Below, piece after piece: positions 5,155 through 60,280 of a stretch of DNA of 64,000 nt. Numbering within the stretch: position 1 is the first letter of the stretch; every line of letters begins with the position of its first letter. The notes below the pieces were generated by a model. It did not search any database. It saw nothing but the letters and a program-made list of their open reading frames with translations, and was not told the DNA's origin. Both the position numbers and the translations under genes were made by a program. This stretch comes from Squalus acanthias (Eukaryota): the NCBI GenBank assembly GCA_030390025.1, contig CM059432.1, positions 35,838,001 through 35,902,000 of the forward strand, read 5' to 3'.

Positions 5155-5324
5155 GTAATGCCACAAGGGCAGTGTACAAGTTCTGAGACACACTTGCCTA
5201 GAAGATACCAGGCTTGATTCCCCAGTCTGCTGGGTTAGCTGAACTAGGGCAGCAGTAATGGCACTGCAATCATCCCACGGTTCCTGCTCCTCATCACTGT
5301 CCTGTTATCCCTGCTGAAAATTGC

Positions 5325-30691: not shown

Positions 30692-30927
30692 TCAGTGATC
30701 TCCTGCCGCACTGTAATCATTCACCACAGAGTCCAGGATGTCGAAGGCCTGCAAGAAGTCTCCCTCTTCATAGCCGTGCTTCCAGTATCAGTGGAGATAG
30801 GCATAGGCATCGTACATGGTCCGAGCCTTCTCCAGGACACGCTGCATGTAGTCCGACACACTGCTGTGGTTGTCGCAAATAGTCAGCGACCGGCTGGGTG
30901 AGGTCAGGTCAACGATATTCCAAGGAT
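30692..30927 (-). pseudogene. TUBZ1: Zeta-tubulin-like gene, terminal exon with in-frame TGA
   Basis: ctaag|at. Encodes DPWNIVDLTSPSRSLTICDNHSSVSDYMQRVLEKARTMYDAYAYLH*YWKHGYEEGDFLQAFDILDSVVNDYSAAGDH*, the tubulin C-terminal helices (AYLHWY..G.E..F..A...L). Premature TGA at 30788-30790. Confidence 0.85.
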
Positions 30928-32098
30928 CTTAGCTGAGGGAGAAAAATCACAGATTTCAGAAATCCAGTGTACGTAATCTTTAAATTCCTCCACGAATGAG
31001 GAATATTTTAAAACTGATAAAGTGGGAAACCACAGAATAAGAAAAGGTCACTCCTCCCACATTCCCTGTACAATCTCCTCTATTGTGGGCTCTACCCACC
31101 CATTTAATGTCTTCCCACAGACCCTGTTCACTCTCTCCTATCAGGGACTTTACCCACCCATTTAATCTCCTCCCACTGGCCCTGTGTACTCTATCCCAGA
31201 ATATTCATTCATCCTCACAACTCCACTATTTGACCCTGGCCTACTGCCCTCCACAGACAGCTAATCTCGAACCTTCATCCTACTCTCAAACAAATATTTA
31301 CTTAGCTCCTACGAGTTAATCCGCCTGTCAACTCATTTTAAATTAAAGACCAAAAATGCTAATAATACCCAGTGGGTGTGTCAGCATCTGAAAAGGGAAA
31401 CTATGGGTTAGTAATTCAGGTGTCATCTCTTCCCAGCACCATAAAGAGTCATTTCTCTCGCCAGATGCTGACAGATCCATTGTGTACTTCCTGCAAGTCC
31501 CAGAATTTGGGTGCTTTTTTAAAAATTCCTTCTCCTGCTATCCCTTCTCAGATCCATCAATTCCTATTTTTGGGAAGTTAATTTGAGCTTTGTTCCTATA
31601 CCAACGGCTTGCGTGTCAGTGAGGATGCCACAGCCCCACAGAGAACAGCATCACGTTAATCGCCATTGCGCAGATTCCTAAATGATCTTTGATTTCCAGT
31701 ATTGTCCCTGAATCTTCCTGATTGTCCTGAGCCTGATTCAGTGAGCTTCCCAATCTCCTCCCTCAGGATTAAAGCTCACTGCAATAGAGGGTTCCTGCTC
31801 CTGGTTCACCACTCAATCACCCTTTCCGGAAAGTGCACCGCGAGGACGGGATCGGACTCCGCTCCGACGCCCTCCAAGGTTAAACGGCCTACCAATGGTC
31901 GCTATGTATGATCACATGTGAAGAGAGGTCCTTGGAAGAAGGTACAGGAGAGTAAACAGCTCTCGTGGACTCGCACCTCAGCGGCTGTCAGCACTTCCAG
32001 GAGAGGAGGCAAGAAAAGCAGGGGGGGCTAAAATACGCGTTTTAAAACTGGTTCAGACCAACATCAACGGATAATGCTTTGAGCCTATACGCAATCGT

Positions 32099-33005
32099 GG
32101 GGTCGATTTTAAACCCGCGGGTTTCAGGCAGGCGGGTCAGATCGGGTCCAATACGCACTTGCTGGCCTAAGTTTGACACCCGGCTTTTTAACCCCCGGGT
32201 CTCATTTGCACACCACCAGTCAGCTGCCCTTCCGAAATGGGTGGAAAGCGACTGCTGACCAGCGGGCAGGAGAGGATGTTTGGCGGGCTGGAGGAAAGCC
32301 CGCCAGCAAGCTGGTAAGTCGCAGGGAGGGAGTTTTGGGAGGGTCTTGCAGGAGGGAAGATGATTCTGGGGCAGCGGTGGTGGCAAATTGCAGGGCCCAG
32401 AGGAGCACTCCGGGCCCCACAAAGGAGATTTTCATTTACCTTGAAGTGCCTTTTCGTCCTTCCCGATAGCTGCCATAGACGGACACAGCACAGAAGGAGG
32501 CCATTCGGCCCATTGTGCCTGTGCCGCCTCTTTGAAAGAGCTATCCAATTAGTTCCACTCCTCCGCTCTTTCCCCATAGCCCTGCAAAGTTTTCCTTTTC
32601 AAGTATTTATCCAATTCACTTTTGAAAGTTATTCGTGAATCTGCTTACACCACCCTTTCATGTAATTCCAAATCATAACTCGCTGTGCAAAATAAATCTC
32701 ATCTCCCCTCTGTTTCTTTTGCCAATTTTTGCCGAACTGCCTTTATCTCTTGGGAAAGCCATGGCCGCTTCCCATCTCGGGCCCGGTGCAAATGCAATCG
32801 AGGCCCCACTGGCGTAATAGGACCCCGATTTGCAGAAATTAATGAGGCAGATGCCACAGCCACTGAACCTATAGTGAACAATTACAATGGTGGACCGTGT
32901 GATTACTGCTGGAATATGGTGGTAAGCCACAATGCTCCATTTTAAAGCCCTTCCCCCACCTCGATCCCACAGAGAGGAGGGCGGGTTTGGGTGAAAATCA
33001 ACCCC
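32099..33005. mobile_element. Harbinger-like MITE interrupted by a CR1 tail (~32475-32730)
   Basis: Terminal inverted repeats ggggtcgatttt / aaaatcaacccc; flanks cgt / cat (3-bp TSD with one transition). Confidence 0.65.
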
Positions 33006-33381
33006 CATATCTCGGACCTGTGTTCAAGCTATGGATGCTGGGTCAATTGAAATTTTCAAAACTGAGATCTATAAATTTTCATTAGATAAGGGTATCAAGT
33101 GATATGGGGCAAAGGCGAGTAAATTGAGTTGAGGTACAGATCAGCCATGAATGGCAGAACAGGATTGGAGGGCTGAATGGCCTGCTCCTGTTCCTATGTT
33201 CTTACAGTGCCGGGGGTGCAATAACCTCTAACAGCAGCAGAGGGCAGCATCTCCCCTGATGCCCACTCTAGTTACCAGTTCCCCCCTTCCTCTTCTAAAT
33301 GATTCTTGGGGTACTCTCCCAGGGGTACCAGCAGCCCACTGATCGCACCCAAGTAAGTACTCACCATACATGGGCATCGTG

Positions 33382-35872
33382 TTGGAAGAAGCATTGAGAG
33401 TAGCAAGGGCACAGAATGTACTCTGGGTGGGGGACTTCAATGTCCATCACCAAGAGTGGCTCGGTAGCACCAGTACTGACCGAGCTGGCCGAGTCCTGAA
33501 GGACATAGCTGCCAGTTTGGGCCTGCGACAGGTGGTGAGAGAACGAACACGAGGGAAAAACCTACTTGACCTCGTCCTCACCAATCTACTTGTCGCAGAT
33601 GCAGCTGTCCATGACAGTATTGGTAGCAGTGACCATCGCACAGTCATTGTGGAGATGAAGTCCCGTCTTCACACTGAGGACACCCTCCATCGTGTTGTGT
33701 GGCACTACCATTGTGCTAAATGGGATAGATTCAGAACAGATCTAGCAGCTCAAAACTGGGCATCCATGAGGCGCTGTGGGCCATCAGCAGCAGCAGAATT
33801 GTATTCCACCACAATCTGTAACCTCATGGCCCAGCATATCCCTCACTCTACCATTACCATCAAGCCAGGGGACCAACCCTGGTTCAATAAGGAGTGTAGA
33901 AGAGCATGCCAGGAGCAGTACCAGGCGTACCTAAAAATGAGGTGCCAACCTGGGGAAGCTGCAACACAGGACTACATGCGGAAGCAGCATGCTATAGACA
34001 GGGCTAAGCGTTCCCACAATCAACAGATCAGATCAAAGCTCTGCAGTCCTGCCACATCCAGTCGTGAATGGTGCTGGACCATTAAACAACTAACGGGAGG
34101 TGAAGGCTCCATGAATATCCCCATCCTCAGTGATGGTGGAGCCCAGCACGTGAGTGCAAAAGACAAGGCTGAAGCGTTTGCAACCATCTTCAGCCAGAAG
34201 GGCCGAGTGGATGATCCATATCGGCCTCCTCCTGCGGTCCCCACCATCACAGAAGCCATTCTTCAGCCAATTCGATTCACTCCACGTGAATCAAGAAACG
34301 GCTGAGCGCACTGGATACAGCAAAGGCTATGGGCCCTGACAACATCCCGGCTATCGTGCTGAAGACTTGTACTCCAGAACTAGCTGCGCCTCTAGCCAAG
34401 CTGTTCCAGTACTACAACACTGGCATCTATCCGACAATGTGGAAAACTGCCCAGGTGTGTCCTGTCCACAAGAAACAGGACAAATCCAATCCAGCCAATT
34501 ACCGCCCCATCAGTCTACTCTCAATCATCAGCAAAGTGATGGAAGGTGTCATCGACACTGCTATCAAGCGGCTCTTACTCACCAATAACCTGCTCACTGA
34601 TGCCCAGTTTGGGTTCCGCCAAGACCACTCGGCTCCCGACCTCATTACAGCCTTGGTCCAAACATGGACAAAGGAGCTGAATTCCAGAGGTGAGGTGAGA
34701 GTGACTGCCCTTGACATCAAGGCAGCATTTGACCGAGTGTGGCATCAAGGAGCCCTAGTAAAACTGAAGTCAATGGGAATCGGGGGGGAAAGCTCTCCAC
34801 TGGCTGGAGTCATACCTAGCACAAAGGAAGATGGTTGTGGTGATTGAAGGTCAATCATCACAGCCCCAGGACATCGCTGCAGGAGTTCCTCAGGGCAGTG
34901 TCCTAGGCCCAACCATCTTCAGCTGCTTCATCAATGACCTTCCCTCCAACATAAGGTCAGAAATGGGGATGTTCGCTGATAACTGCACAGTGTTCAGTGC
35001 CATTCACAACTCCTCAGATAATGAAGCAGTCCATGCCCGCATGCAACAAGACCTGGCGACATTCAGGCTTGGGCTGATAAGTGGCAGGTAACATTCGCGC
35101 CACAGAAGTGCCAGGCAATGACTATCTCCAACAAGCGAGAGTCTAAACACCGCCCCCTGACATTCAATGGCATTACCATCACTGAATCCCCCACCATCAA
35201 TATCCTGGGGGTCACCATTGATCAGAAACTTTACTGGACCAGCCACATAAATACTGTGGCAACAAGAGCAGTTCAGAGGCTAGGTATTCTGCGGCAAGTG
35301 TTGCACCTCCTGACTCCCCAAAGCCTTTCTACATCTACAAGGCACAAGTTAGGAGTGTGATGGAATACTCTCCACTTGCCTGGATGAGTGCAGCTCCAAC
35401 AACACTCAAGAAGCTCGACACCATCCAGGACAAAGCAGCCAGCTTGATTGGCACCCCCTCTACCACCTTAAACATTCACTCCCTCCACCACCGGCGTACC
35501 GTGGCTGCAGTGTGTACCATCTACAAGATGCACTGCAGCAATCGCCAAGGCTTCTTCGGCAGCACCTCCCAATCCCACGACCTCTTCCACCTAGAAGGAC
35601 AAGGGCAGCAGAGGCATGGGAACACCACCACCTCCAAGTTCCCCTCCAAGTCACGCATCATCCTGACTTAGAAGTATATTGCCGTTCCTTCACTGTCGCT
35701 GGGTCAAAATCCTGGAACTCCCTCCCTAACAGCGCTGTGGGAGTACCTTCACCACACGGACTGCAGCGGTTCAAGAAGGCAGCTCACCACCACCTTTTCA
35801 AGGGCAACTAGGAATGGGCAATAAATGCTGGCCTTGCCAGCGACGCCCACATCCCATAAACGAATAAAAAAA
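33382..35872 (+). mobile_element. RTEX-like LINE, 5'-truncated
   Basis: Highly similar to 11242-15412 without the CR1 insert; APE-RT ORFs at 33370-35811; A-rich tail. Confidence 0.9.
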
Positions 35873-36173
35873 GAGACTATTCCATCTTGGAGAGGAGAGG
35901 CAGCTGGACCTTATCTACACACTTCCAAGCATGAGTCATTCTGCTGAAGCAGGGGTGGGAAGTCTGGCTGATATTTCCTCCACCCCTTCTGGAGGGGAAC
36001 TAAGACCCATTCTGACGCCCTACTGCTGCTCAGCTGAGAACAACTGAGAATCGACCCCGGCATCTTCTGGTCTGTATGGCTCAGCACCATGTCGTGTACC
36101 ACACTTACCTACTGAGTATCTACCTACCGAGATGGATTGTTCCTGTGGAATTTCCGACACTGGGATTACTGAC

Positions 36174-36315
36174 CTGTCCAGTGGTCCAGGGGATGAGTGT
36201 TCCACGAAACACATCCATATCCTTGTTTCATTTTTGACGCGATGGGCCTCAGCGAGCAACTAAACGTGTCCGCTCCATTCCCACAAGCGACAGCTAGAAC
36301 AGCCGTGCTCTGGTG
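36174..36315 (-). pseudogene. TUBZ1: Zeta-tubulin-like exon (142 bp)
   Basis: gatatcag|cac...tggacag|gtcagt. Encodes HQSTAVLAVACGNGADTFSCSLRPIASKMKQGYGCVSWNTHPLDHWT; its phase-1 end completes Asp with the terminal exon. Confidence 0.85.
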
Positions 36316-36329
36316 CTGATATCAAAGGA

Positions 36330-36338
36330 GTTAAGGGT
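36330..36338 (-). promoter_or_regulatory. U12-type branch site (ACCCTTAAC)
   Basis: CCTTAAC about 15 nt upstream of the AG at 36316-36317, with no extended pyrimidine tract. Confidence 0.8.
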
Positions 36339-36416
36339 TTCTTATCGATAATTTTTCAACCACTCCCATTTGTTTGTCAAACCTCCCGTTCCCCTTCACC
36401 AGCGGAGCTCCACCCA

Positions 36417-39400
36417 GGGTACAGTAGCATAATGGTTATGTTGCTCAACTAGTAATCCAAAGGCCTGGACTGATAATCCGCGAGGTGTGAGTTCAAATCC
36501 CACCACGGCAGCTCTGGAATTTAATATCAGTTAATTAAATAAATCTGGAATATAATGCTCGTGTCAGGAATAGCTACCGGATTGTTGTAAAAATCCATCT
36601 GGTTCACTAATGCCCTTTAGGGAAGGATGTCTGCCGTCCTTACCTGGTCTGGCCTATCTGTGACTCCAGACCCACAGCAATCTGGTTGACTTTTAACTGC
36701 CCTCTGAAATGGCCGAGCAAGCCACTCAGTTGTAACAAACCGCTACAAGAAACCATAATAAGAATAAAACCGGACGGACCACCCGGCATCGACCTCGGCA
36801 CCGGCTTCAGACACAACAACGGCACACCCAGCCCAGTTGACCCTGCAAAGTCCTCCTCACTAACATCTGGGGACTTGTGCCAAAATTGGGAGAGCTGTCC
36901 CACAGACTAGCAATTCCATGTCTGAATCCCTCCAATCAGGTTTCCGCCCTTGCCACAGTACCGAAACGGCTCTCATCAAAGTCACAAATGACATCCTTTG
37001 TGACTGTGACAAAGGTAAGCTATTCCTCCTTGTCCTTCTTGAGTTGTCTGCAGCCTTTGACACGGTTGACCACTCCATCCTTCTCCGACGCCTCTCCACC
37101 GTCGTCCAGCTGGGTGGGACTGCACTCGCCTGGTTCCATTCTTATCTATCTAATCGTAACCAGAGAATCACCTGCAACGGCTTCTCTTCCCACTCCCGCA
37201 TCGTTACCTCTGGTGTCCCCCAAGGATCTATCCTTGGCCCCCTCCTATTTCTCATCTACATGTTGCCCCTTGGCGACATCATCCGAAAACACAGCGTCAG
37301 TTTCCACATGTACGCTGACGACACCCAGCTCTACCTCACTACTTCTTCTCTCGACCCCTCCACGGTGTCTAAATTGTCAGACTGCTTGTCCGACATACAG
37401 TTCTGGATGAGCAAATATTTTCTCCAATTAAATATTGGGAAGACTGAAGTCATTGTTTTTGGTCCCCGCCACAAACTCCGTTCCCTAGCCACTGACTCCA
37501 TCCCTCTCCCTAACATCTGTCTGAGGCTGAACCACACTGTTCGCAACCTTGGTGTCATATTTGACCCTGAAATGAGATTCTGACCACATATCCGCAGCAT
37601 AACAAAGACCGCCTACATCGCCCATCTCCGCCCTTGCCTCAGCTCATCCGCTGTTGAAACCCTCATCCATGCCTTTGTTACCTCCAGACTTGACTATTCC
37701 AACACACTCCTGGCTGGCCTCCCATATTTCACCCTACGTAAACTTGAAGTCATCCAAAACTCGGCTGCCCGTGTCTAACTCGCACCAAGTCCCGTTCGCC
37801 CATCACCCCTGTGCTCGCTGACCTACATTGGCTCCCGGTTAAGCAGCACCTCGATTTCAAAATTCTGATCCTTGTTTTCAAATCCCTCCATGGCCTCGCC
37901 CCTTCCTATCTCTGTAATCTCCTTCAGCCCCACAACGCCCCCCACCCCCCAAGATATCTGCGCTCCTCTAATTCTGCCCTCTGGAGCATCCCTGATTATA
38001 ATCGCTCAACCTTTGGTGGCCGTGCCTTCTGTTGCCTAGGCCCTAAGCTCTGGAATTCCCTGCCTAATTCCCTACCTCTCTTTCCTCCTTTAAGACGCTC
38101 CTTAAAACCTACCTCTTTGACCAAGCTTTTTGGTCACCTGCCCTAATTTATCCTTATGTGGATCGGTGTCAAATTTTTTGTCTTAAAATACTCCTGTGCA
38201 GCGCCTTGGGATGTTTTACTACGTTAAAGGCGCTATATAAATACAAGTTGTTGTTGAAGCAACAGCCTGACATAGTCATACTAACAGAATCATACCTTTC
38301 TGCCAATGTCCCAGACTCCTCTATCACCATCCCTGGGTACGTCCTGCCCCACAAGCAGGACAGACCCGCCAGAGGTGGCGGCACAATGGTATATAGTCGG
38401 GAGGGAGTGGCCCTGGGAGTCCTCAACATTGACTCAGGACCTGATGAGGTCTCATGGCATCAGATCAAGCATGGGCAAGGAAACCTCCTGCTGATTACCA
38501 CCTACCGCCCTCCCTCAGCTGATGAATCAGTACTCCTTCATGTTGAACACCACTTGGAAGAAGCACTGAGGGTAGCAAGGGCACAGAATGTACTCTGGTT
38601 GGGGGATTTCAAAGTCCATCACCAAGAGTGGCTCGGTAGCACCACTACTGACCAAGCTGGCCGAGTCCTGAAGGACATAACTGCCAGTCTGGGCCTGCAG
38701 CAAGTGGTGAGAGAACCAACACGAGGGGGAAAAACCTACTTGACCTCGTCCTCACCAATCTACCTGTCGCAGATGCATCTGTCCAGGACAGTATTGGTAG
38801 CAGTGACCACCACACAGTCCTTGTGGAGACGAAGTCCCGTCTTCACACTGAGGACACCCTCCATCGTGTTGTGTGGCACTACCACCGTGCTAAATGGGAT
38901 AGATTCAGAACAGATCTAGCAGCTCAAAACTGAGCATCCATGAGGCGCTGTATCCCACCACAGTCTGTAACCTCAGAGCCCGGCACATCCTTCACTCTAC
39001 CATTAATATCAAGCCAAGTGACCACCCTGGTTCAATGAGGAGTGTAGAAGAGCATGCCAGGCGTACCTAAAAATGAGGTGCCAACCTGGGGAAGCTGCAA
39101 CACAGGACTACATGCATGCTAAACAACGGAAGCAGCATGCTATAAACAGAGCTAAGCAATCCCTCAACCAACGGATCAGATCAAAACTCTGCAGTTCTGC
39201 CACATCCAGTCGTGAATGGTGCTGGACCATTAAACAACTGACGGGAGGAGGAAGCTCCATGAACATCCCCATCCTCAATGATGGCGGGACCCAGCACGCG
39301 AGTAAAAAAAACAAGGCTGAAGCGTTTGCAACCATCTTCAGCCAGAAGTGCCGAGTGGATGATCCATATTGGCCTCCTCTTGAGGTCCCCATCATCACAG

Positions 39401-40480: not shown

Positions 40481-42181
40481 GCAATATGATAATGACCTGT
40501 CTGTTTTAGTGATAGAATCATAGAGATTTACAGCACAGAAGGAGGCCATACGGCCCATCATGTCTGCACCAGTCGAAAAAAAGCTATCCAGCCTAATCCC
40601 ACTTTCCAGCTCTTGGTCCGTAGCCCTGTAGGTTACGGCACTTCATGTGCATATCCAAGTACTTTTTAAATGTGATGAGGGTTTGTACCTCTATCACCCT
40701 TTCAGGCAGTGAGATCCAGGCCCCCATCACCCTCTGGGTGAAGAAATTTCTCCTCAACCCTCCTCTAATCCTTCTACCAATTACTTTAAATCTATGCCCC
40801 CTGGTTATTGACCTCTCTGCTAAGGGAAATAAGTGCTTCCTATCCTCTTTATCTAGGCCCCTCATAATTTTATATACCTCAATTAAGTCTCCCCTCCCCT
40901 GTTCCAAAGAAAACAACCCCAGCCTATCCAATCTTTCCTCATAGCTAAAATTCTCCAGTCCTGACAACATCCTCGTAAATCTCCTCTGTACCCTCTCTAG
41001 TGCAATCACATCTTTCTTGTAATATGACCAGAACTGTACGCAGTACTCTAGCTGTGGTACAACTAGTGTTTTATACAGTTCTAGCATAACCTTCCTGCTC
41101 TTATATTGTGCCTCGGCTAATAAAGGAAAGTATCCCATATGCCTTCTTTAACCATCTTATCTACCTGTCCTGCTACCTTCAGGGATCTGTGGACATGCAC
41201 TCCAAGGTCCCTCTGTTCCTCTACATTTCTCAGTATCCTACCATTTATTGTGTATTCGCTTGCCTTGTTAGCCCTCCCCAAATGCATTACCTCACACTTC
41301 TCCAGATTGAATTCCGTTTGCCACTTTTCTGCCCACCTGACCAGTCCATTGATATCTTCCTGCAGTCTACAGCTATCTTCCTCATTATCAACCACACAGC
41401 CAATTTTTGTATCATCTGCAAACTTCTTAATCATGCCCCCTACACTGAAGTCTAAATCATTGATATATACCACAAAAAGCAAGGGACCCAGTACTGAGCC
41501 CTGCGGAACCCCACTGGAAACTGCCTTTCAGTCACAAAAACACCTGTCGACCATTACCCTTTGCTTCCTGCCACTGAGCCAATTTTGGATCCAACTTGCC
41601 ACTTTCCCTTGGATCCCATGGACTTTTACTTTTTTGACCAACCTGCCATGTGGGACCTTGTCAAAGGCCTTGCTAAAATCCATGTAGACTACATCAAATG
41701 CACTACCCTCATCGACCCTCCTCAAAAAATTCAATCAAGTTAGTCCGACACGACCTTCCCTTGACAAATCCATGCCGACTGTCCTTGATTAATCCGTGAC
41801 TTTCTAAATGAAGATTTATCCTGTCCCTCAGAACTTTTTCCAATAATTTTCTCACCACCGAGATTAGGCTGACTGGCCTGTAATTACTTGGTCTATTCCT
41901 TTCTCCCTTTTTAAACAATGGCACAATGTTAGCAGTCCTCCAGTCCTCTGGCACCACACCTGTAGCCAGAGAGGATTGAAAATGATGGTCAGAGCCTCCG
42001 CTATTGCCTTCCTTGCCTCTCTTAACAGCCTGAGATACATTTCATTGGTTGGTGAGTATTTCTCTTTTTTTTTTATACAAAACTTCAATTTTATTGTTTC
42101 TCGGGTATCTGTGGTGTAGCAGAGACTGCTGGCATAAATTAACTGAACAGTAAATAATACATTTTTAATTAATTACATAGA

Positions 42182-43138
42182 ATGGGAGAGCAGGTGATGT
42201 GTTACTGCTGCAATATGTGGGAGCTGGTGGACACCATTGATGTTCACGGTGAACACATTTGCAGTAAGTGTTGGCTGCTCGAGGAACTCCGGCTCCGTGT
42301 TGATGAGCTGGAGTCCGAGCTTCAAACACTGCGACACATCAGGGAGGGGGAGAGTTACCTGGACTCCGTGTTTCAGGAGGTAGTCACACCAATTAGAGTA
42401 ACTAATTCAGAAGTAGCCCGTGGTCAGGGACAGGAAGGTGTGACTACGAGTGAGGCAGGTACAGGGATCCAGGAGGTAGTGTTGGAGGAGCCGCAGCCCT
42501 TGCTCTTGTCCAACAGGTTCGAGGCTCTTACTCCCTGTGTGGATAGGAGCGGGGACTGCAGGGAGGATGAGCAACCTGGCCACAGCACCGTGGTAAGGGG
42601 GGCCATTCAAGTGGGGGGAGTAAAAAGAAATGTTGTAGTGGTAGGGGATAGTATCATTAAGGGGATAGATAGGGTTCTTTGCAGCCAAGAGCGAGAGTCC
42701 CGAAGGCTGTGTTGCCTGCCCGGTGCCAGGGTTAAGGACATCTCCTCTGGGCTGGAGAGAAACTTGGAGTGGGAGGGGGAGGATCCAGTTGTCGTGGTCC
42801 ATGTTGGTACCAATGACATAGATAGGACAAGGAAAGAGGTTCTGCTGAGGGAGTTTGAGCAGCTAGGGGCCAAATTAAAAAGCAGAACCTCGAGGGTAAT
42901 AATCTCTGGATTACTACCTGAGCCACGAGCAAATTTGGCTAGGGTAAATAAAATCAGGGAGTTGAATGCGTGGCTCAAAGACTGGTGTGGGAAAAATGGG
43001 TTTTGCTTCTTGGGACACTGGCACCAGTACTGGGGCAGGAGAGAGCTGTTCCGTTGGGACGGACTTCACTTGGCCAGTGCTGGGACTAGTGTCCTGGCGA
43101 ATCGAATAACTAGGGCTGTGGAGAGGGCTTTAAACTAA
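42182..43138 (+). CDS. CR1 ORF1p (Cys-rich finger, leucine zipper, SGNH esterase), 318 aa
   Basis: CYCC...HICSKC, LEELRLRVDELESELQTL, VVGDSI, LPGARV, VHVGTND and DGLHL motifs. Confidence 0.93.
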   Translation: MGEQVMCYCCNMWELVDTIDVHGEHICSKCWLLEELRLRVDELESELQTLRHIREGESYLDSVFQEVVTPIRVTNSEVARGQGQEGVTTSEAGTGIQEVVLEEPQPLLLSNRFEALTPCVDRSGDCREDEQPGHSTVVRGAIQVGGVKRNVVVVGDSIIKGIDRVLCSQERESRRLCCLPGARVKDISSGLERNLEWEGEDPVVVVHVGTNDIDRTRKEVLLREFEQLGAKLKSRTSRVIISGLLPEPRANLARVNKIRELNAWLKDWCGKNGFCFLGHWHQYWGRRELFRWDGLHLASAGTSVLANRITRAVERALN

Positions 43139-43176
43139 TTAGTGGGGGGGAGGATTCAAGAGAGCAAAAAATAAAA

Positions 43177-46128
43177 ATGACAACAGAGAGGGTCATAGAC
43201 ATAGGTAGCAGTAGGGGAATCACAAATCAGAGCGTGGCAGGAAGGGACAGAGTGTGTGGAGTAAAAGGTAAACTGGTAAAAAGTGAAAAAACAGGAACTA
43301 AGTGCCACAAAGCATATTTGAAAGTTCTCTATCTGAATGCACGTAGCATTCGTAACAAAATAGACGAGTTAATGGCACAAATAACTACATATGGTTATGA
43401 TATTGTGGCCATTACAGAAACATGGCTGCAGGGTGACAATGCCTGGGAATTAAACATACCAGGTTATTTAACGATCAGGAAGGACAGGCAGGAAGGAAGG
43501 GGAGGTGGGGTGGCTATGTTAATAAAGGAAGGAATCACTGTAATACAGAGTAATGATATAGGGTCAAAAAATCATGATAATGAAACAGTTTGGGTGGAGA
43601 TAAGGAATAATAAGGGGAAAAAAACATTAGTGGGCGTAGTCTATAGGCCTCCGAACAGTTGCAACTCTATTGGACGGAGTATCAATCAGGAAATAGTTGA
43701 GGCATGTAATAAGGGAACATCTATAATTATGGGGGATTTTAACTATCATATTAATTGGACAAATCAAATGGGGCAGGGCTGCCTTGAGGATGAGTTCATT
43801 GAGTGTATTAGGGATGGGTTTCTTGAGCAGTATGTAACTGAACCGACCAGGGGGCAAGCAACCTTAGATCTGGTCCTGTGTAACGAGACAGGATTAATTA
43901 AAAATGTCCTAGTAAAGGATCCCCTTGGAATGAGTGACCATAACATGGTTGAATTCCATATTCAATTAGAGGGTGAGAAGGTTGGATCTCAAACAAGCGT
44001 GCTAAGCTTGAATAAAGGAGACTATGAAGGTATGCGAGCGGAATTGAGTAGAGTGGATTGGGAAAATAGATTAAAGGGTAAGACGACACATGATCAGTGG
44101 TGTACATTCAAGGAGTTATTTTACAACTTCCAAAAAAAATATATTCCACTGAAAAGAAAAGGGTGTAAAAGAAAGGACAGTCATCCGTGGCTAAGTAAAG
44201 AAATTAAGGATAGTATTCGACTAAAAACAAGGGCATATAAGGTAGCGAAATCTAGTGGGAGGACAGAGGATTGGGAAAACTTTAAAAGGCAGCAAAAAAT
44301 AACAAAAAGATTGATTAAGAAAGGGAAGATAGATTATGAAAGTAAATTAGCAAAAAATATAAAAACAGATAGTAAGAGTTTTTATAGTTATATAAAAAGA
44401 AAAAGGGTGGCTAAAGTAAATGTTGGTCCCTTAGAGGATGAGACCGGGAAATTAATGGTGGGAAATATGGAGATGGCAAAAACACTGAATGAATATTTTG
44501 TATCAGTCTTTACAGTAGAGGACACTAAGAATATCCCAACACTGGACAAACAGGGGGCTATAGGGGGAGAGGAGCTAAACACGATCAAAATCACTAAGGA
44601 AGTGGTACTCGGTAAAATAATGGGACTCAAGGCGGATAAATCACCTGGACCTGATGGCTTACATCCTAGAGTCTTGAAGGAAGTGGCGGTAGGGATTGTA
44701 GATGCATTGGTAATAATTTTTCAAAACTCCCTGGATTCCGCTAAGGTCCCGGCAGACTGGAAAACTGCTAATGTAACACCCTTATTTAAAAAGGGCAGTA
44801 GACAGAAGGCTGGTAACTATAGACCGGTTAGCCTAACATCTGTGGTAGGTAAAATTTTGGAGTCCATTATTAAGGAAACAGTAACAAGACATTTGGATAA
44901 TCATAATTTAATAGGACAAAGTCAGCATGGTTTTACAAAGGGGAAGTCATGTTTGACAAATTTGCTGGAGTTCTTTGAGGAAGTAACATATAGAGTGGAT
45001 AAAGGGGAACCAGTGGACGTAGTGTATTTAGACTTCCAAAAGGCATTTGACAAGGTGCCACACAAAAGATTATTGCTTAAGGTAAAAAATCACGGGATTG
45101 GGGGTAATATTCTGGCATGGATAGAGGATTGGCTATCTAACAGAAAGCAAAGAGTTGGGATAAATGGTTCATTCTCAGACTGGCAATCAGTAACTAGTGG
45201 TGTTCCACAGGGGTCAGTGCTGGGTCCCCAACTCTTCACAATCTATATTAACGATTTGGAGGAAGGGACCAAGTGTAACATATCAAAATTTGCAGATGAT
45301 ACAAAGATGGGAGGGAAAGTAGTGAGTGAGGAGGACATAAAAAACCTGCAAGGGGACATAGACAGGCTAAGTAAGTGGGCAGAGATTTGGCAGATGGAAT
45401 ACAGCACTGGAAAGTGTGAGGTGATGCACTTTGGCAGGAAAAATCCTAGAGCAATTTATTATCTTAATGGCAAGAAACTGGAGAGTACTGAAGTGCAAAG
45501 GGATCTGGGGGTCCTGGTGCACGAAACTCAAAAGGTTAGTATGCAGGTGCAGCAAGTGATTAAGAAGGCAAATGGAATGTTGGCTTTCATTGCTAGGGGG
45601 ATAGAATATAAAAATAGGGAGGTATTGCTTCAGTTGTACAAGGTATTGGTGAGACCGCACCTGGAATACTGCATACAGTTTTGGTGTCCTTACTTAAGGA
45701 AAGACATCCTTGCTCTCGAGGCAGTGCAAAAAAGGTTCACTCGGTTAATCCCGGAGATGAGGGGGTGGTCATATGAGGAGAGGTTGGGTAGATTGGGACT
45801 CTACTCATTGGAGTTCAGAAGAATGAGAGGCGATCTTATTGAAACATATAAGATTGTGAAGGGGTTGGATCGGGTGGATGCGGGGAGGATGTTCCCGATG
45901 ACGGGTGAGACGAGAACTCGGGGACATAGTCTTAGAATAAGGGGCTGCTCTTTCAAAACTGAGATGAGGAGGAACTACTTCACTCAGAGGGTGGTAGGTC
46001 CATGGAATATGCTGCCACAAAAAGCTGTAGAAGCTACAACATTAATTAAATTTAAAACAGAAATAGACAGTTTCCTAGAAGTAAAGGGCATTAAGGGTTA
46101 CGGGGAGCGGGCAGGAATTTGGACATGA
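43177..46128 (+). CDS. CR1 ORF2p (AP endonuclease + reverse transcriptase), 983 aa
   Basis: Uninterrupted [49 protein letters not shown]. Confidence 0.97.
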   Translation: MTTERVIDIGSSRGITNQSVAGRDRVCGVKGKLVKSEKTGTKCHKAYLKVLYLNARSIRNKIDELMAQITTYGYDIVAITETWLQGDNAWELNIPGYLTIRKDRQEGRGGGVAMLIKEGITVIQSNDIGSKNHDNETVWVEIRNNKGKKTLVGVVYRPPNSCNSIGRSINQEIVEACNKGTSIIMGDFNYHINWTNQMGQGCLEDEFIECIRDGFLEQYVTEPTRGQATLDLVLCNETGLIKNVLVKDPLGMSDHNMVEFHIQLEGEKVGSQTSVLSLNKGDYEGMRAELSRVDWENRLKGKTTHDQWCTFKELFYNFQKKYIPLKRKGCKRKDSHPWLSKEIKDSIRLKTRAYKVAKSSGRTEDWENFKRQQKITKRLIKKGKIDYESKLAKNIKTDSKSFYSYIKRKRVAKVNVGPLEDETGKLMVGNMEMAKTLNEYFVSVFTVEDTKNIPTLDKQGAIGGEELNTIKITKEVVLGKIMGLKADKSPGPDGLHPRVLKEVAVGIVDALVIIFQNSLDSAKVPADWKTANVTPLFKKGSRQKAGNYRPVSLTSVVGKILESIIKETVTRHLDNHNLIGQSQHGFTKGKSCLTNLLEFFEEVTYRVDKGEPVDVVYLDFQKAFDKVPHKRLLLKVKNHGIGGNILAWIEDWLSNRKQRVGINGSFSDWQSVTSGVPQGSVLGPQLFTIYINDLEEGTKCNISKFADDTKMGGKVVSEEDIKNLQGDIDRLSKWAEIWQMEYSTGKCEVMHFGRKNPRAIYYLNGKKLESTEVQRDLGVLVHETQKVSMQVQQVIKKANGMLAFIARGIEYKNREVLLQLYKVLVRPHLEYCIQFWCPYLRKDILALEAVQKRFTRLIPEMRGWSYEERLGRLGLYSLEFRRMRGDLIETYKIVKGLDRVDAGRMFPMTGETRTRGHSLRIRGCSFKTEMRRNYFTQRVVGPWNMLPQKAVEATTLIKFKTEIDSFLEVKGIKGYGERAGIWT

Positions 46129-47390
46129 GTCTAGGTTCGGATCGGTCATGGCCCTGTGGGTAGTGGAGCGGGCCCAGGGACTGTGTAGCCTGATTCTGCT
46201 CCTATTTCGTGTGTGCAATTCTGTTAGATGCAGGAGATGTTTCTGTGATAGATAGTAGATTGGCGGTTAGGATCAGATCAGCCATGATCTTATTGAATGG
46301 CGGAGCAGGCTCGATGGGCCGATTGGCCTACTCCTGCTCCTATTTCTTATGTTCTTTCTTATGTTCATCCGGGCCTGGCGATTTATCTACTTTCAAAGAT
46401 GCTAAACCTCTTAATATTTAATTTCTCTCTATGTTTATCCCATCTAATACTTCACACTCCTCCTCCTCAACTACAACGTCTGCATCGTCCCTCTCTTCTG
46501 TGAAGACAGCCGCAAAGTATTCATTAAAAACCATACCCACGTCTTCCGCCTCCACACGTAGGTTACCCTTTTGGTCTCAAATAGCCCCTTATTCTTTCCT
46601 TAGTTATTCTCTTGCTCTTTATGTATTTATAAAACATTTTCCTTGATTTTACTTACCAATATTTTTTCATGCCCTCTCTTTGCTTTCCTAATTTATTTTT
46701 TAATTTCACCCCTGCACTTTCTATACTCCTCTAGGCTTTCTGTATGTTGGTTCAAGGATAAATGTTGGCCAGGACACCAGGGACACCTTGCTCTTCTTCA
46801 AAATAGTGACATGGGATCTTTTACTTCCACCTGAGAGGACTGACAAGGCCTCGGTTTAATGTCTCATCCAAAATATGGCACCACCAACAGTGCAAAAACC
46901 CCTCAGTACTGCACTGCAGTGTCAGCCTAGACTTTGTGCTCAAGTCACTGGAGTGGGGCTTGAACCCACAACCTTCTGACTCAGACGTGAGAGTGCTACC
47001 ACTGAGCCACAGCTGACTTACCCATACCTTATTATATATTGCCATTCTTTCATCATCACTGGGTCAATATCCTGGAATCCCCAACCCAACACCATCACCA
47101 AAAGGACTGCAGAGTTGGAATGAGAAGGTCCAATACCACCATCTCAGGGCAACTGCGGATTTGCAATAAATGCAGCCTTGCCGTATCCCAAGAACAATTT
47201 TTTTTAAGTCACTGCCTTCAGGAGAGATGAGAAAATTAGGAGCAGGGAAAAAGACACTCCTGATTGATCTGGAAGAATGCAACAAAAGATGTTAAAATGC
47301 AGGTCCTGTCAGTTAGTTTAGCTGGTCCTTGAAGTTAGGTTGTAATTGGCCCAAAGAATTTCTTCATCTCAACTGATCTTACTTATCTGA

Positions 47391-47399
47391 AAAGGATAC
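47391..47399 (-). promoter_or_regulatory. U12-type 5' splice site GTATCCTTT
   Basis: aaaggatac on + is GTATCCTTT on -, directly after the tubulin-like exon at 47400-47462. Confidence 0.85.
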
Positions 47400-47462
47400 A
47401 ATATTCCCGGTGGATGAGTGTGAACAATGGAGGAGAGCATTATATCCCAGGATGCAGTTCCC
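47400..47462 (-). pseudogene. TUBZ1: Zeta-tubulin-like exon (63 bp, frameshifted)
   Basis: ttgttcttag|g gga act gca tcc tgg gat = (R)GTASWDIMLSSIVHT, then a frame break, then STGNI|gtatcctttt. A length of 63 is incompatible with the required 3n+1. Confidence 0.75.
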
Positions 47463-48528
47463 CTAAGAACAAAGAGACTGCATTAGATTGGATCAGCAGT
47501 CCACGTATAATCTGAACTGTCATGGAGCCAAGTCCCAAGGGGATTAAATATTAAAAAGGAGAAAAGCCCATTTAGTTCATTGATCCTATTCAACATCTAA
47601 TCTACCCCGTCTTTGACAAGGTCTCTTTGGAGTTGAGAGGGCAGATGGGGCCTCAGTTTAACATCTCATGCAAAAAACAGCACCTCCGACAGTGCAGCAC
47701 TCCATCAATACTGCACTGAAGTGTCAGCCTGGATTATGTGCTCAAATTTCTGGAGTGAGGCTTGAACCCACAACCTTCTGACTCAGAAGCAAGAGTGCTA
47801 CCACTGAGCCAAGGCTGACACTTTGGGGACTGCTTGGCTTGGAGACTCTTAAGCTCAGTGACGGGTTTCCACACTCATCATACAACTGGCTAACGAAATA
47901 AAAAAATGGAATTTGCACCACCCATTTAAAAGCCTGGCCATTTAGGATATGCACCGCTTGGCAAGGGTAACTCCGCACTCCCAGTGAGTGCAGGTCAGAC
48001 ATGCACAGTTACAATGTTGTATCCTTATTAAGGAATGACCAGTGGCTTAACGGAGTGACCACTGGCTCAGTGGTAGTATTCCTGCCTCTGAGACAGAAGG
48101 GTTGGGTTTGGGGCCCACTCCAGGAAGCCCGGCAAGCAGAGCACCGGCTTTGAATAATGGATTCACGTCCAGTGGCTGTTCTTGTCTGATGGATGTAGGT
48201 GCCACCCCTCATCCCCCCCCCCCCCCCCACATCGTAACGAGTAGGTGGGGCTCTTTAAACTTGGTTGCAGCCCATCTAGGCAACGGTACTGTGAAGATAA
48301 ACACCTCTATTTCCTAGAAAGTGGCTCAAGAATCTCATGTGAGATGCCCTAGCGTGCTTCACTCTGTATCTAACCTGTGCTATACCTGATCTGGGAGTGC
48401 TTGATGGGACAGTGTAGATGGAGCTTTACTCTGTATCTAACCCGTGCTAGACTTTCCATGGGAGTGCTGGATGCTGACACTGAGTTCAAAATTCACACCA
48501 CTTCCTAGTCTGACACCTATTCTAAATT

Positions 48529-48918
48529 TTCGAATCTGACCTCGGGTGACTGTCTGTGTGGAGTTTGCACATTCTCCCCGTGTCTGCGTGGGTTTCCTCC
48601 GGGTCCTCCGGTTTCCTCCCACAGTCCAAAAATGTGTGGGTTAGGTTGATTTGGCTATGATAAATTGACCCTTAGTGTTAGGGGGGATTAAATATGTGGG
48701 GTTATGGGGATAGGATGGGATATGTTAGGGGGAATTAAATACGTGGGGTTACGGGGGTAGGGTGGGATATGTGTACTGTGGGGATTAAAGCAGGGACAGG
48801 GTACTGGATTTGGATGATCAGCCATGATCGTATTGAATGGCGGAGCAGGCTCGACGGGCCGAATGGCCTACTCCTGCTCCTAGATTCTATGTTTCTATGT
48901 TTTATGTTTCTATGTTTC
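48529..48918 (+). mobile_element. HE1-type V-SINE, 5'-truncated
   Basis: V domain 'ctgtgtggagtttgcacattctccccgtgtctgcgtgggtttcctccggg...ccggtttcctcccaca' with a CR1-type tail. Confidence 0.85.
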
Positions 48919-49013
48919 CACAGCCCAGTTCAAATTTTCACTGGGGCTTCCTCACACTCAGACAGACAGCCACTTTCACAATTAGACCCACTGCAGTCGA
49001 GTCTCCCTCCTAC

Positions 49014-49109
49014 CTCTTGTTTGTCTGGCTTGTGTACAGGAACTTTGTAGTTGGCACTGGACAGACAGATCTCAACAGCTCCCAGGGCTCCAGACCAATG
49101 CTGACACCG
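49014..49109 (-). pseudogene. TUBZ1: Zeta-tubulin-like exon (96 bp)
   Basis: ttttgaag|c...aagag|gtagga. Encodes (S)GVSIGLEPWELLRSVCPVPTTKFLYTSQTNK(R); phase 2-2. Confidence 0.88.
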
Positions 49110-51289
49110 CTTCAAAAAAAAACACACAAAACAGTTAGAGAATGAAACAAATCAACTTGTGGTACAAACAGATGGCCACGCCATGCTGTGGCACTTCTAC
49201 AAATGTAAGCCCAAACCTTGAACATTGGTGGCTCAATCACCGTTATGGCATCACAGCCATGTCCAATGCTATCCTCATCCAAAGTCCATACACACACTTT
49301 CCAGCAGGGGTGGGTTCAGTAAAGAGGCCCTTCAGCCCATTTTTCTTTCCTTGTCCCTAGATCAAGGTTACTGAGGCCAACTCCTACCGCCCCCTGCTGA
49401 GATGTGAAATGCAAAAATCAGCCTCTTGCTGATGGTTATCCAGTGACCCAATGTCCAACTGGTATTGTGAGAGGATGAAATCAAATGGATTGAAGTGCCT
49501 TTTTCACCAGAACCCATCTAGCGACCCCTGTCAAGGAATTGTACATGACAAGGATGACAGGATTTGGATGCCTTCTACAGTCAGATAGTTGGTCAACACT
49601 CATTCTTTGGGCTCACGTATGAAGTGGCCACTTGGGTGCGGTACCAGAGGGCTGCTGGTGCCAGTACAACCGAACAGTGTCGCAACAAGAGTTAACACTT
49701 GCGGTGATGGAAGGGGAGAGAAATAGTAGGGTTAGAGAAAGCCACAGCCTCAACTGTCCAACTCCATTTGAGTATCACTGTGTTTGTCCTTTTGGGGCTG
49801 TTTTAATTAGAACAGTGGAGATTACAGGGTGATTGTGAAGGGATGGGACAGAGGAGATAGAAACAGTAAGTCATTCAGGGTCCAGAATGAGGGAACATAG
49901 TTATAAGATTAAATGTAAGAGATGTAGGACAGAGAGCAGGAAAAACTTTTTTTTTTTTTACACAGTGGGTTGTGAGTCAGTGGTTGAAGCAAAGACCATG
50001 TCAACATTTAAGAATAGTTAGCTAAGTAGATGACGGAAAGGGGGATAAATGGAAATGGGAACAGAGCAGTCACATGGATTAGGACTGCGGCTCATGTGGA
50101 GGATAAACTGGTTGGGCCAAATGGCCTGTTTCCTTTTGGTAAATTCTATGTAATCCTTGGGCCTGACTAGGTTCATGCCACTCAGGAAAGTTTGTCTTGC
50201 CAAAGTTCTCTATTTCTTCCTCTCTCCTAAAAACAGTGGCTTTCACTGTACTGCAATCCCACAGATGTCTTTGCCAACTTGCCGAAATGGCCAAATATCA
50301 TTGTGTGGGCAGTGAGTGTCAGCAGGCTGTTTGACCGTGTTGGGTATGGAAGATAGGAGCCAAGCCTGGTACTGTCCTCAACCAATCTGTATACACACAC
50401 ACACATGTAGTTCCAACATAGGTCACTGGACAGTGACCTGGAGTAGCCCAGAAGCATTCAAGCCATTTGTGACACGCCAAGTAAGGGATCAGCTACCTCA
50501 GCACAGACCGGAGACCAATTCGGGGACCTTCTGGTCTGTGCCTCAATTCTAGGTTCAATCCTTTAACAAATGAGTCATTAGAAAGTCTACAACTCCATTT
50601 TTAAAAGGCGTTAGTCAACACATCGTCACCTGGGAGTCTAGGCCACAGATCTGTGGGGAATAAAATTCCTTCTGATGCTAAATCTTCCTTGAAGTATTTT
50701 AGTCTTATGCTGGCTGTGAAAATATAAATTGGAAGGCAAAATTCAAGGTTTCCTTAATCAAAGGCCAACCATAGGGAAAGTGCCCATGCTTCTCCTAGGC
50801 CCAGAGCCAGACTAGTGTAATTGTGTCAATCTTTTTCATACAGGACTTTTCAGGGAAATGCTCATTTAATAGATGAGTAAACTAGAGCCAATTTACAGTA
50901 AATTTGGTTCTTAAGAAGATTACTCGTGACGCTAAGGGGATTAAAACCAGGGACCCTCCCCCACCCCTACACCCCCCCACCCCCCATTTGAAAACGCCAT
51001 CTATTGGCACTACTACCAGGCAAAATATGTCAATCATCCAACTCTGAGTACAGGACTAAAAGTACGATTACTCATTACCATTAGAGCAGAAGTTCCCAAA
51101 CTGGGGATTGGGGGGCGCAAAGGTTATCAGGGGTTCAGGAAGACACATGGGTTTTGTCACTCAAACCTGAGACTACCGGTACATAGTACCAAAGCATCAT
51201 TGACCAATCTGCTCACGTCACGTCAGTAGCCCCTAGCTCCTGTGTGCTACATAACTGACGTGAATGTGACGTTTGGTGTTTTACGAATG

Positions 51290-51917
51290 AACATAGGAAC
51301 AGGAGTAGGCCATTTAGCCCCTTGAGCCTGCTCCGCCATTCAATGAGATTATGGATGGTCTGTGACCTAACTCCATACACCCACCTTTTCCCCATATCCC
51401 TTAATACCTTTGGTTAACAAAAATCCATCAATCTCAGATTTGAAATTAACAATTGACATAACCTTAATTGTTATTTGTGGAAGAGAGTTCCAAACTTCAC
51501 CCACCCTTTGCGTGTAGAAGTGTTTCTTAACTTCACTCCTGAAAGGCCTGGCTCTAATTTTTAGGTTATGCCCTCAGTCCTCGACTCCCCAACCAGCAGA
51601 AATAGTTTCTCTCTATCTACCATATCTGTTCCCCTTTATATCTTCAAAACTTTGATTAAATCACCCCTTAACCTTCTAAATTCCAGGGAATACAACCCTA
51701 ATTTGTGTAATCTCTCCTCGTAATTTAACCCTTGGAGTCTGCGTATCATTCTGGTAAATCTACGCTGCGCTCCCTCCAAGGCCAATATATCCTTCCTGAG
51801 GTGTGGTGCCCAGAACTGCTCTCAGTACTCCAGGTGTGGTCTAACCAGGGCTTTGTATAGCTGTAGCATAACTTCTACCCCCTTGTATTCTAGTCCTCTA
51901 GATATAAAGGTCAGCAT
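51290..51917 (-). mobile_element. CR1 3' fragment
   Basis: Reverse complement of the CR1 ORF2 C-terminus and tail. Confidence 0.8.
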
Positions 51918-52393
51918 GTTTTGATGGGTAAAGTTGAGGATTTTGATCCTGGGGAAGGATGTGGAACTGGGCAAAAAAGAAAACTATTAACTATGATCCT
52001 TCCTACTTGGACTTTCATAAGGGAATTGGATATATACTTGAAAAGAAAAAATTTGCTGTGCTATAGGGAAAGTGCAGGGGAATGGGACTAGCTGGATCAC
52101 TCTTTCAAAGAGCCAGCGCAGGCACTATGGGTCAAATGGCCTCCTTCTGTGCTGTATAATTGATTCTATGACTTGGGATTCTTATTTGCTGGCTCTCGAT
52201 CAGCAGTGTGTTGTTTCTTAGAAAGGGAGGGACATGAATCTCCAAAGGGGGATGCAACAAAAAAAGATTAGGAAGCTCTGGGGTTAAGAGGCATTATTCT
52301 GACAGAGGAGTAGTTTCTCTCCCTCTCACTCCGTGCCCCTCAGCACCCTGATTGTTCTTTGACTCTACCTTTGCCACATACAGTATATCCTAC

Positions 52394-52552
52394 CTTCGTG
52401 TTCGGAGGCTGCTCACTGGGTACATCAGTCCCGCCAGGCAGGAAGCGACATGCGTGTTCATGTCGGACAAATAAATTTGCAGCTGTGGAGTTGGGATCTT
52501 CTTTCCACACAACACGTCATCATTGTGAAATAGGAGTACTCCGTCGGCATAC
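52394..52552 (-). pseudogene. TUBZ1: Zeta-tubulin-like exon (159 bp)
   Basis: ctttgcag|g...cgaag|gtagga. Encodes (R)YADGVLLFHNDDVLCGKKIPTPQLQIYLSDMNTHVASCLAGLMYPVSSLRTR(S), the tubulin 'D....ND.L...MN..IA' region. Confidence 0.88.
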
Positions 52553-53348
52553 CTGCAAAGATGTCAAATACAAAAAAAAATGATGCTAAACGGAACAGCC
52601 TAAGTTGGATTTCAACCTCGGGTCCTCCAGCTGAAAGGAGGGTGTGCCGATTCAAGTGTCATTCAGCCTAAGGGGGGAAATGTCCTCCGTCTATTGACCT
52701 CAATCATATTTTTAGTATAGCATATGTACTGATTTAGGTATCGGCCTTGGCTCAGTTGGTAGCACTGTTGCCTCTGAGTCAGGAGGTTGCGTTCATCCAG
52801 GAGAACTCCCATTCTCTTGTGCAAAAAGTGTCATGGGATCTTTTACATCCACCTGAGAGCGTCGACGGGGCCTCTGTTTTATGTCTCATCTGAAAGACAG
52901 CACCTCCGACAGTGCACCACTGCCTCAGTACTACAGTGGAGTGTCAGCCTGGATTATGTGCTAAAGCACGTAGTGGGGCTGGAACCCACAACCGTCCGAT
53001 TAAGAGGGGAGAGTGCTTCCAACTGAGCCAAACTGGCAAGTATAATGGAACAAATGTCAGACTACGGTACTCAAGAGTTCTTTTCTTTCTGAGGTTGGGT
53101 CTAAGATATCCTTGTGACACAGTAGAGGAAGCTTCGCTTCGTAACTAACCCGTGATTTATCTGACCGGAGGAAGCGTCAGGGAAATGTGACTCTGCATCT
53201 CGTCAGTGTACCTGATCTGAGACTGCTCAATGCTGCCCCCCTGGCTGCCTGAAATGGAAAGTGTTCCATTCATCTTGAGGAGCACAGAAATTCATACACA
53301 CAAAAGAAATCTTATTTAAAGCATAAAACAGCCAGAGTGTGGAGTTAG

Positions 53349-53490
53349 CTCTGGAGCCAGGGAAGGCAGAGCAGCGAGTTGTAGTGTTGCAGTGGGCTTT
53401 CCCCCGCCTGGTGTGGAGCGACCGTCACAGAGAGAATGTGACCCATGGGAAACTCCTCTCGGATTGATTCACACAAACGTGCTCCCAATC
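53349..53490 (-). pseudogene. TUBZ1: Zeta-tubulin-like exon (142 bp) with mutated donor
   Basis: ttctctag|ga. Encodes (G)LGARLCESIREEFPMGHILSVTVAPHQAGESPLQHYNSLLCLPWLQ(R), the segment right after the tubulin GGGTGSG loop. The donor reads ag|ctaact. Confidence 0.88.
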
Positions 53491-53717
53491 CTAGAGAAAA
53501 ATAACATTCACCAGATCATAGTTTTGAAAGGCTACAAGGCCCAACAGGAACAGTTCTCTCCATTGACCAGTCATCACCTCCCACCTTCTCCTTGGCTCTG
53601 TGGTAGCGCTCTGACTTCTGAGACAGAAGGTCATGGGTTCAAGTCCCACTCCAGAGACTTGAGCACACGATCTAGTCTGACACTCCTAGTGCTGCACTTT
53701 CTGAGGCGCCGTCCTTT

Positions 53718-59894: not shown

Positions 59895-59935
59895 TCACAA
59901 GCTTTCGGAGCTTACGTGGCCCCTTCCTCAGGTGA
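59895..59935 (-). ncRNA. Mirror copy of the minimal hammerhead motif
   Basis: Exact reverse complement of 60035-60075 in the left arm. Confidence 0.75.
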
Positions 59936-60034
59936 AGTAAAGAAATACAGACTCGACAAAGCATATATAGATGTAAGTTACACATGCATTGTTCTCTATC
60001 TATATATGCTTTGTCGAGTCTGTATTTCTTTACT

Positions 60035-60075
60035 TCACCTGAGGAAGGGGCCACGTAAGCTCCGAAAGCTTGTGA
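60035..60075 (+). ncRNA. Minimal type I hammerhead ribozyme motif
   Basis: tcac-CTGAGGA-a-GGGGC-cacgtaa-GCTCC-GAAA-G-CTT-gtga: conserved core, 5-bp stem II, stem I tcac/gtga, palindromic AAGCTT stem III. Confidence 0.75.
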
Positions 60076-60280
60076 TTTCAAATAAAACTGTTGGACTATA
60101 ACCTGGTGTTGTGCGACTTCTCATGAAAGGGTGATGGAAGCAGATTCAATAGTAACTTTCAAAAGAGAATTGGATAAATACTTGAAGGGGAAAGATTTGC
60201 AGGGCTCTGGGGAAAGAGCGGGGGAATGGGACTAATTGGATTGCTCTTTCAAACAACCGGCATAGGCACGATGGGCCGAT

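Follow-up and report, generated by a model that had tools for sequence, protein, structure and literature searches.

What has become of the zeta-tubulin gene in the shark Squalus acanthias? The question is raised by a 64,000-nucleotide stretch of its genome (contig C8:35,838,001-35,902,000 of a 3.71-Gb assembly in 3882 contigs; hereafter the window), on whose minus strand lie six exons of a tubulin gene that can be joined in order but do not form one open frame. Zeta-tubulin is the least understood tubulin: the one role described for it, at the basal foot of multiciliated cells, comes from Xenopus, and because humans and mice lack the gene, the standard mammalian models offer no way to study it. 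A first-pass annotation had taken the locus for a zeta-tubulin gene in the process of pseudogenisation, and had left it between a loss of the gene and a dead duplicate. Our analysis indicates that the locus is very probably the single-copy orthologue of zeta-tubulin (Xenopus tubz1), which in this squalomorph shark has decayed to a unitary pseudogene.

The complete locus comprises ten exons on the minus strand and extends over ~52.7 kb in total. Base-by-base reading gave exon lengths, from exon 1 to exon 10, of 104, 96, 62, 127, 142, 159, 96, 63, 142, and 236 nucleotides (nt). The window holds exons 5 to 10, the six minus-strand exons that the first-pass annotation had outlined, and each of them was matched by tblastn (E 5e-35 to 1e-3). 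With P0006, a shark orthologue of 425 amino acids (aa), as the query, the six exons matched in order and together represented residues 134-425, or 69% of the protein, in agreement with the earlier estimate of the C-terminal two-thirds of a tubulin. Exon 5 (53349..53490) has a canonical AG acceptor and encodes ...LGARLCESIREEFP...PLQHYNSLLCLPWLQ (tblastn match 53351-53491, E 5e-23, 91% identity to P0006 residues 134-180), and exon 6 (52394..52552) encodes YADGVLLFHNDDVL... (match 52396-52572, E 2e-20). Exon 7 (49014..49109; 96 nt; match 49013-49111, E 7e-14) is open, has canonical splice sites, and encodes …GLEPWELLRSVCP…; it is followed by exon 8 (47400..47462; 63 nt; match 47411-47464, E 1e-3). 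Exon 9 (36174..36315; match 36175-36315, E 4e-20) is likewise open with canonical splice sites and encodes …GYGCVSWN…, and the last exon, exon 10 (30692..30927; match 30695-30928, E 5e-35, 79% identity to P0006 residues 348-425), ends in the natural TGA stop at 30692-30694.

Six-frame translation with 30-nt flanks yielded a tubulin-like peptide in each of the six intervals, the exons beginning in differing phases. Four of the five motifs on which the first identification had relied were each found once on the minus strand (PLQHYNS at 53395, LLF.NDD at 52536, EPWELL at 49090, and CVSWN at 36213), while the fifth, AYLHWY, is missing and the sequence reads AYLH-TGA-Y in its place. Exons 1 to 4 lie outside the window on the same contig and strand, 2-19 kb past its right edge (window-equivalent positions 83,346-66,100). 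The whole-assembly protein search returned upstream matches to residues 1-40, 34-68, and 110-135 on the strand of the zeta exons, and a tblastn scan of the next 30 kb beyond the window recovered exon 1 with its ATG together with exons 2, 3, and 4. Over the locus as a whole the ATG start codon is kept, 17 of the 18 splice sites are canonical, and the introns measure 0.8-11 kb.

Whether this tubulin is zeta or delta was addressed by protein searches and phylogeny. Exon 5 alone gave 36 protein matches at E<=0.001 among 37 candidates (best 93% identity), the names listed being for the most part 'tubulin delta chain-like'. A search with P0006 returned 464 proteins at E<=1e-5, of which 120 were listed, and our statements on taxa rest on those 120: they include sharks, coelacanth, amphibians, reptiles, marsupials, non-teleost and some teleost fishes, and invertebrates. 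Among the matches was a Xenopus tropicalis protein (P0047) whose cluster of 14 members includes NP_001082326.1, 'zeta tubulin L homeolog [Xenopus laevis]', and the UniRef entry 'Zeta tubulin'. A careful IQ-TREE analysis was performed on 34 rows: the stitched window peptide, 20 zeta-tubulins, 10 delta-tubulins, and, as the outgroup, three beta-tubulin open reading frames (ORFs) of the shark's own genome. The window peptide fell with the named Xenopus laevis zeta tubulin in a zeta clade of 21 rows with 100/100 support, apart from a separate delta clade (100/98) to which the probable delta-tubulin of this species belongs; within the zeta clade the sharks were grouped at 100/99 and the window peptide was paired with Heptranchias, the sevengill shark, at 95/93. 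A quick tree of 41 rows, in which two outgroup rows were unrelated ORFs, placed the window peptide likewise. The assignment to zeta rather than delta, first made from sequence motifs, is thus upheld by the phylogeny. Judged by the same sequence comparisons, the shark entries filed as 'tubulin delta chain-like' are zeta-tubulins despite their database name.

Domain and structure searches were less specific. Against Pfam, exon 5 scored 13.5 bits to PF00091 (cut-off 33), exon 6 gave a chance-level zinc-finger match, and exon 9 gave none; PF00091 is precomputed for all listed orthologues. Exon 4 holds the coding sequence for the GGTGSG signature (…LSGGTGSG). Among solved structures, beta-tubulins came closest (E about 1e-31, residues 4-420), and the best 60 structure matches shown included no zeta-tubulin.

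The Xenopus tubz1 protein and the window copy belong to the same orthologous family, with 56% identity over 403 aligned residues of the stitched peptide and the same length class of ~423-425 aa. The Xenopus gene is intact, whereas the window copy carries two frameshifts, a lost splice donor, a premature stop, and two in-frame deletions. Sizes and boundaries of the deletions were taken from protein alignments with the orthologues (an alignment of 25 zeta-tubulins). The first lesion in gene order lies outside the window in exon 4, at about 35,904,164-35,904,179 on contig C8, where an 11-nt frameshift deletion upstream of the GGTGSG signature has removed SFR between ...TME and KEVERR..., leaving the two halves of the exon in different frames. 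The donor of intron 5 (53347..53348) is lost: the intron starts with CTAACT directly after the exonic AG, not with GT, and read-through past exon 5 ends at a TAA two codons on. Exon 6 has suffered two in-frame deletions, one of ~18 nt (six residues after DDVL, near 52509/52510) and one of ~9 nt (three residues before PTPQ, near 52494/52495), and the nine residues concerned are present in every other shark orthologue, as judged from tblastn gaps and the 25-row alignment. In exon 8 a 13-nt deletion (around 47417-47420) has left 63 nt where the orthologues imply 76, and two frames are required to read the exon, ...SSIVH and then SSTGNI. Finally, TGG has become TGA at 30788..30790 in exon 10, replacing the Trp of AYLHWY 32 codons before the natural stop; this Trp is present in 13 of the 13 rows printed of the 25-row alignment. 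The exon 5 donor, the exon 8 frame, and the premature TGA are the three disabling lesions reported before, and all were found in the assembly; the exon 4 frameshift and both exon 6 deletions are additions to them.

When the ten exons were joined, they amounted to 1227 nt in comparison to the 1278 expected, and the frame from the ATG ran through 106 native and 30 out-of-frame residues before stopping in exon 5 at codon 137. No full-length ORF of ~425 aa was found in the joined exons, given that stop, the two frameshifts, the lost donor, and the premature TGA.

Candidate ways around these lesions were also considered and rejected. A cryptic nearby donor or an extended exon 5 runs into the TAA at the second codon. 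Skipping of exon 8 changes nothing, as its remaining 63 nt leave the downstream frame the same with or without it. The two frameshifts sum to 24 nt and might have compensated each other, yet stops lie in the stretch between them.

Is the window copy the gene itself or a disabled duplicate of it? Only the best candidates were scored in the genome searches. The assembly-wide protein search gave nine zeta-like matches (58-81% identity), all at this C8 locus; the other 20 matches in the assembly were 22-32% identical and comprised long ORFs of alpha, beta, and gamma type and one delta exon. Exon 10 DNA and exon 5 DNA were each found once, in the window itself, and no second zeta-tubulin copy was detected in the 3.71-Gb assembly. 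A dead duplicate with an intact zeta-tubulin gene elsewhere in the genome could have escaped searches that score best candidates only in an assembly of 3882 contigs, which may be incomplete and sets the bound on the single-copy result. Against a duplicate stand the lack of any other locus above 32% identity, the single occurrence of both exon sequences, and the retention of ten exons with their introns, so that the locus is no retrocopy. In addition, Findeisen et al. (PMC4202323) report that delta-, epsilon-, and zeta-tubulins were duplicated in none of the species they analysed. We consider a dead duplicate extremely improbable. Of the two options left by the first-pass annotation, the loss is borne out by protein and DNA searches that both find a single zeta-like locus, and the duplicate is not.

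The absence of a second zeta locus in both kinds of search indicates a unitary pseudogene. The gene is disabled and keeps its exon-intron structure, no functional paralogue was found in the assembly, and relatives carry an orthologue, presumably functional to judge from its open frame. Annotated orthologues are present in at least 10 other shark species of five orders among the matches listed, namely species of Heptranchias, Heterodontus, Chiloscyllium, Hemiscyllium, Rhincodon, Cetorhinus, Carcharodon, Mustelus, and Scyliorhinus (two species). These direct orthologues of the window copy are annotated as protein-coding with open frames, and they retain all the residues that the window copy lacks. 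The stitched peptide is 82-88% identical to them, as high as the functional Heptranchias protein. Exon 7 corresponds exactly to a 32-residue block that is absent from the 393-aa X2 isoforms of Heptranchias and Hemiscyllium (P0004 and P0009). The missing block fits a shared exon boundary and suggests that exon 7 is a conserved in-frame cassette exon of shark zeta-tubulin.

Besides the possible incompleteness of the assembly, several observations weigh against a pseudogene. The lesions are known from a single assembly, and the boundaries of the deletions depend on protein alignments. All four deletions measure 9-18 nt and none 1-2 nt, a size spectrum unusual for neutral decay. Moreover, divergence is not raised: the terminal branch of the window peptide is 0.055 vs 0.075 for its functional sister, and identity to Heterodontus is 87.7% for the window peptide vs 86.3% for Heptranchias, so the peptide gives no independent sign of a long period of relaxed constraint. 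A mild excess of private changes was observed in the alignment: in 405 comparable columns of the 25 rows, the window peptide has 12 private residues, three of them at otherwise invariant sites, compared with 7 and one for Heptranchias and 6 and one for Heterodontus. The three invariant-site changes are Y>H, S>Y, and R>C, the last of them in exon 9 at a position invariant in the other 24 zeta-tubulins.

Could the gene be functional after all, its lesions being assembly or consensus errors or a null allele of the sequenced individual? An amino-acid divergence no higher than that of functional shark orthologues would fit a functional gene, and the lesions come from a single assembly. Six separate events would nevertheless have to be explained away (deletions of 11, 18, 9, and 13 nt, a donor G>C, and a nonsense G>A). 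None of them is a homopolymer-length slip, and the neighbouring exons and 17 of the 18 splice sites read cleanly, which argues, if indirectly, against assembly error. As a null allele, the six lesions need a long unselected haplotype, which is hard to square with a persisting functional allele. The protein databases point the same way: a zeta protein of the same species was not seen among the 36 and 120 matches listed, whereas its probable own delta-tubulin is annotated. We also sampled sequence words from a 9.6-kb stretch (window 44,000-53,600) in 24 sequencing runs of eight studies, a sampling that is uninformative on the lesion sites themselves. Five runs labelled 'organism A' (two samples, two studies) contain 72-76% of these words, compared with 24-35% for runs of other organisms, and no RNA run was listed as a holder. 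Taken together, a functional gene appears improbable, and decay of the single zeta-tubulin gene remains the preferred reading.

The lineage of the loss can be narrowed by two observations. The window copy is sister to the Heptranchias zeta-tubulin, and the top match of the shark's own delta exon (100% identity over 72 residues) is a protein named for the sawshark Pristiophorus japonicus. These data place the loss, in all likelihood, on a squalomorph branch, later than its divergence from the sevengill lineage. A loss on a squalomorph branch of sharks is independent of the mammalian one, as had been proposed earlier, with orthologues in at least 10 other shark species and the nearest of them in the sister lineage.

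When the loss took place is less constrained. Direct measurement has put the shark mutation rate at 7e-10 per bp per generation (PMC10587355), so low that even an old pseudogene would stay legible, and the loss could be tens of millions of years old or reach back as far as the divergence from the sevengill lineage. The first-pass annotation spoke of a recent loss and of a gene in the process of pseudogenisation; the latter describes the state of the gene fairly, but the low mutation rate and the branch lengths given above do not show recency.

The good preservation of the exon sequences could also be read as continued use of the locus in a reduced form, for instance through a regulatory RNA transcribed from it or a short peptide made of the 106 native N-terminal residues, and the intact start codon, exons 1-3, and most of the splice sites would fit such a use. 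However, the 106-residue fragment ends before GGTGSG and cannot fold as a tubulin, and the low mutation rate explains the preservation equally well. This explanation is therefore very improbable in our view.

Under the preferred reading of a unitary pseudogene, the layout of exons and introns, the start codon, and 17 of the 18 splice sites have survived the destruction of the reading frame. A correctly spliced transcript would stop at codon 137, far upstream of the last exon junction, and would thus be expected to be degraded by nonsense-mediated decay with no tubulin made. The lesions would be fixed in the species, and the loss would postdate the split from the sevengill-shark lineage. In secondary accounts of Turk 2015 (PMC11156431, PMC4741028), zeta-, epsilon-, and delta-tubulin (ZED) form a co-conserved module, and Xenopus zeta-tubulin is a component of the basal foot of multiciliated cells. 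The basal-foot role may be dispensable in this shark or may be covered by the delta-tubulin that it retains.

The true delta-tubulin gene (TUBD1), a sister tubulin class of the same ZED module, lies at C11:674,510-715,872 (locus L012 for one exon), where eight exon matches together span residues 1-448 of P0155. The delta exon read on C11 is open and matched 402 proteins at E<=0.001 from 451 candidates, the names listed being mostly 'tubulin delta chain'. The delta protein matched the zeta locus only once, at 35% identity over exon 10. Retention of delta at C11 is as predicted by the rule under which a lineage may lose delta or zeta, not both (Turk 2015, as cited in PMC4741028).

Placental mammals show a similar lineage-specific loss of zeta with delta kept, and the shark case is independent of theirs. 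Findeisen et al. (2014) reported that zeta-tubulin was lost independently many times and is absent from Eutheria and present in Metatheria (PMC4202323). Repeated independent loss is already documented, and the loss itself is unsurprising. The shark case differs in that the remains of the gene can still be recognised in full, whereas Table 1 of Findeisen et al. lists 0 pseudogenes among 49 zeta sequences (PMC4202323). We found no paper that mentions both zeta-tubulin and shark.

The surroundings of the gene were examined by a Pfam scan of 95 stop-to-stop ORFs of at least about 100 aa and two shorter KIF9 candidates, 25 of which carried a family: 19 LINE (long interspersed nuclear element) reverse-transcriptase/endonuclease ORFs, two DDE_Tnp_4, one Myb/SANT-like, one GDSL-lipase-like LINE ORF1, and two KIF9 C-terminal domains. 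KIF9 is present in the window as its 3' tail only, convergent with the 3' end of zeta-tubulin, with its C-terminal domain (PF23735) in two open plus-strand exons at 4941-5183 (E 2e-14) and 6653-6895 (E 1e-18); contig C9 carries another PF23735 locus. The interval from KIF9 to the 3' end of zeta-tubulin holds the two PIF/Harbinger-type transposase ORFs (DDE_Tnp_4) at 9093-9769 on the plus strand (E 3e-18) and 15419-15970 on the minus strand (E 1e-11), together with the Myb/SANT-like ORF. Intron 8 contains an apparently full-length LINE (42173-46125, plus strand) that runs antisense to the pseudogene. Its ORF1 (42173-43135) carries a GDSL-lipase/OSK-like domain and its ORF2 (43114-46125) is open over 1004 aa with endonuclease and reverse-transcriptase domains, and the element is possibly young and still coding. 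In intron 4, a perfect inverted repeat at 59846-60124 (127-nt arms, 100% complementary, 25-nt spacer) might represent either a foldback element or a palindrome produced by the assembly.

Is this shark an isolated case? No zeta protein of a skate, ray, or chimaera was present among the 36 and 120 matches listed, so the gene may be missing or unannotated in these groups, and delta-tubulins of Mobula, Amblyraja, and Narcine are among the delta matches listed. The zeta model of Carcharodon carcharias (P0010) shows four private changes where the other 24 sequences are invariant (G10R in the GQCGNQ loop, G121A, L180F, and G300R), reads GGTGYG for GGTGSG, has a 2-residue gap, and is without exon-2 residues. 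These oddities may reflect relaxed constraint or a poor gene model. From these three leads, the pseudogene described here, the batoid and chimaera proteins missing from the matches listed, and the odd white-shark model, we raise only tentatively the possibility that zeta-tubulin is eroding repeatedly within cartilaginous fishes and not in one lineage only.

For the family, the analysis corrects a naming trap, since the shark orthologues filed under delta are zeta-tubulins. For the organism, it presents the shark as a natural knockout, in which the gene is readable while close relatives keep zeta-tubulin. A comparison of the basal foot and the orientation of cilia between this shark and a catshark would test compensation by delta or by another component. 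If the erosion is indeed repeated, the chondrichthyans would offer a graded natural series of intact, decaying, dead, and vanished zeta genes, with which to explore the contribution of zeta-tubulin to the basal foot and the nature of its replacement there.

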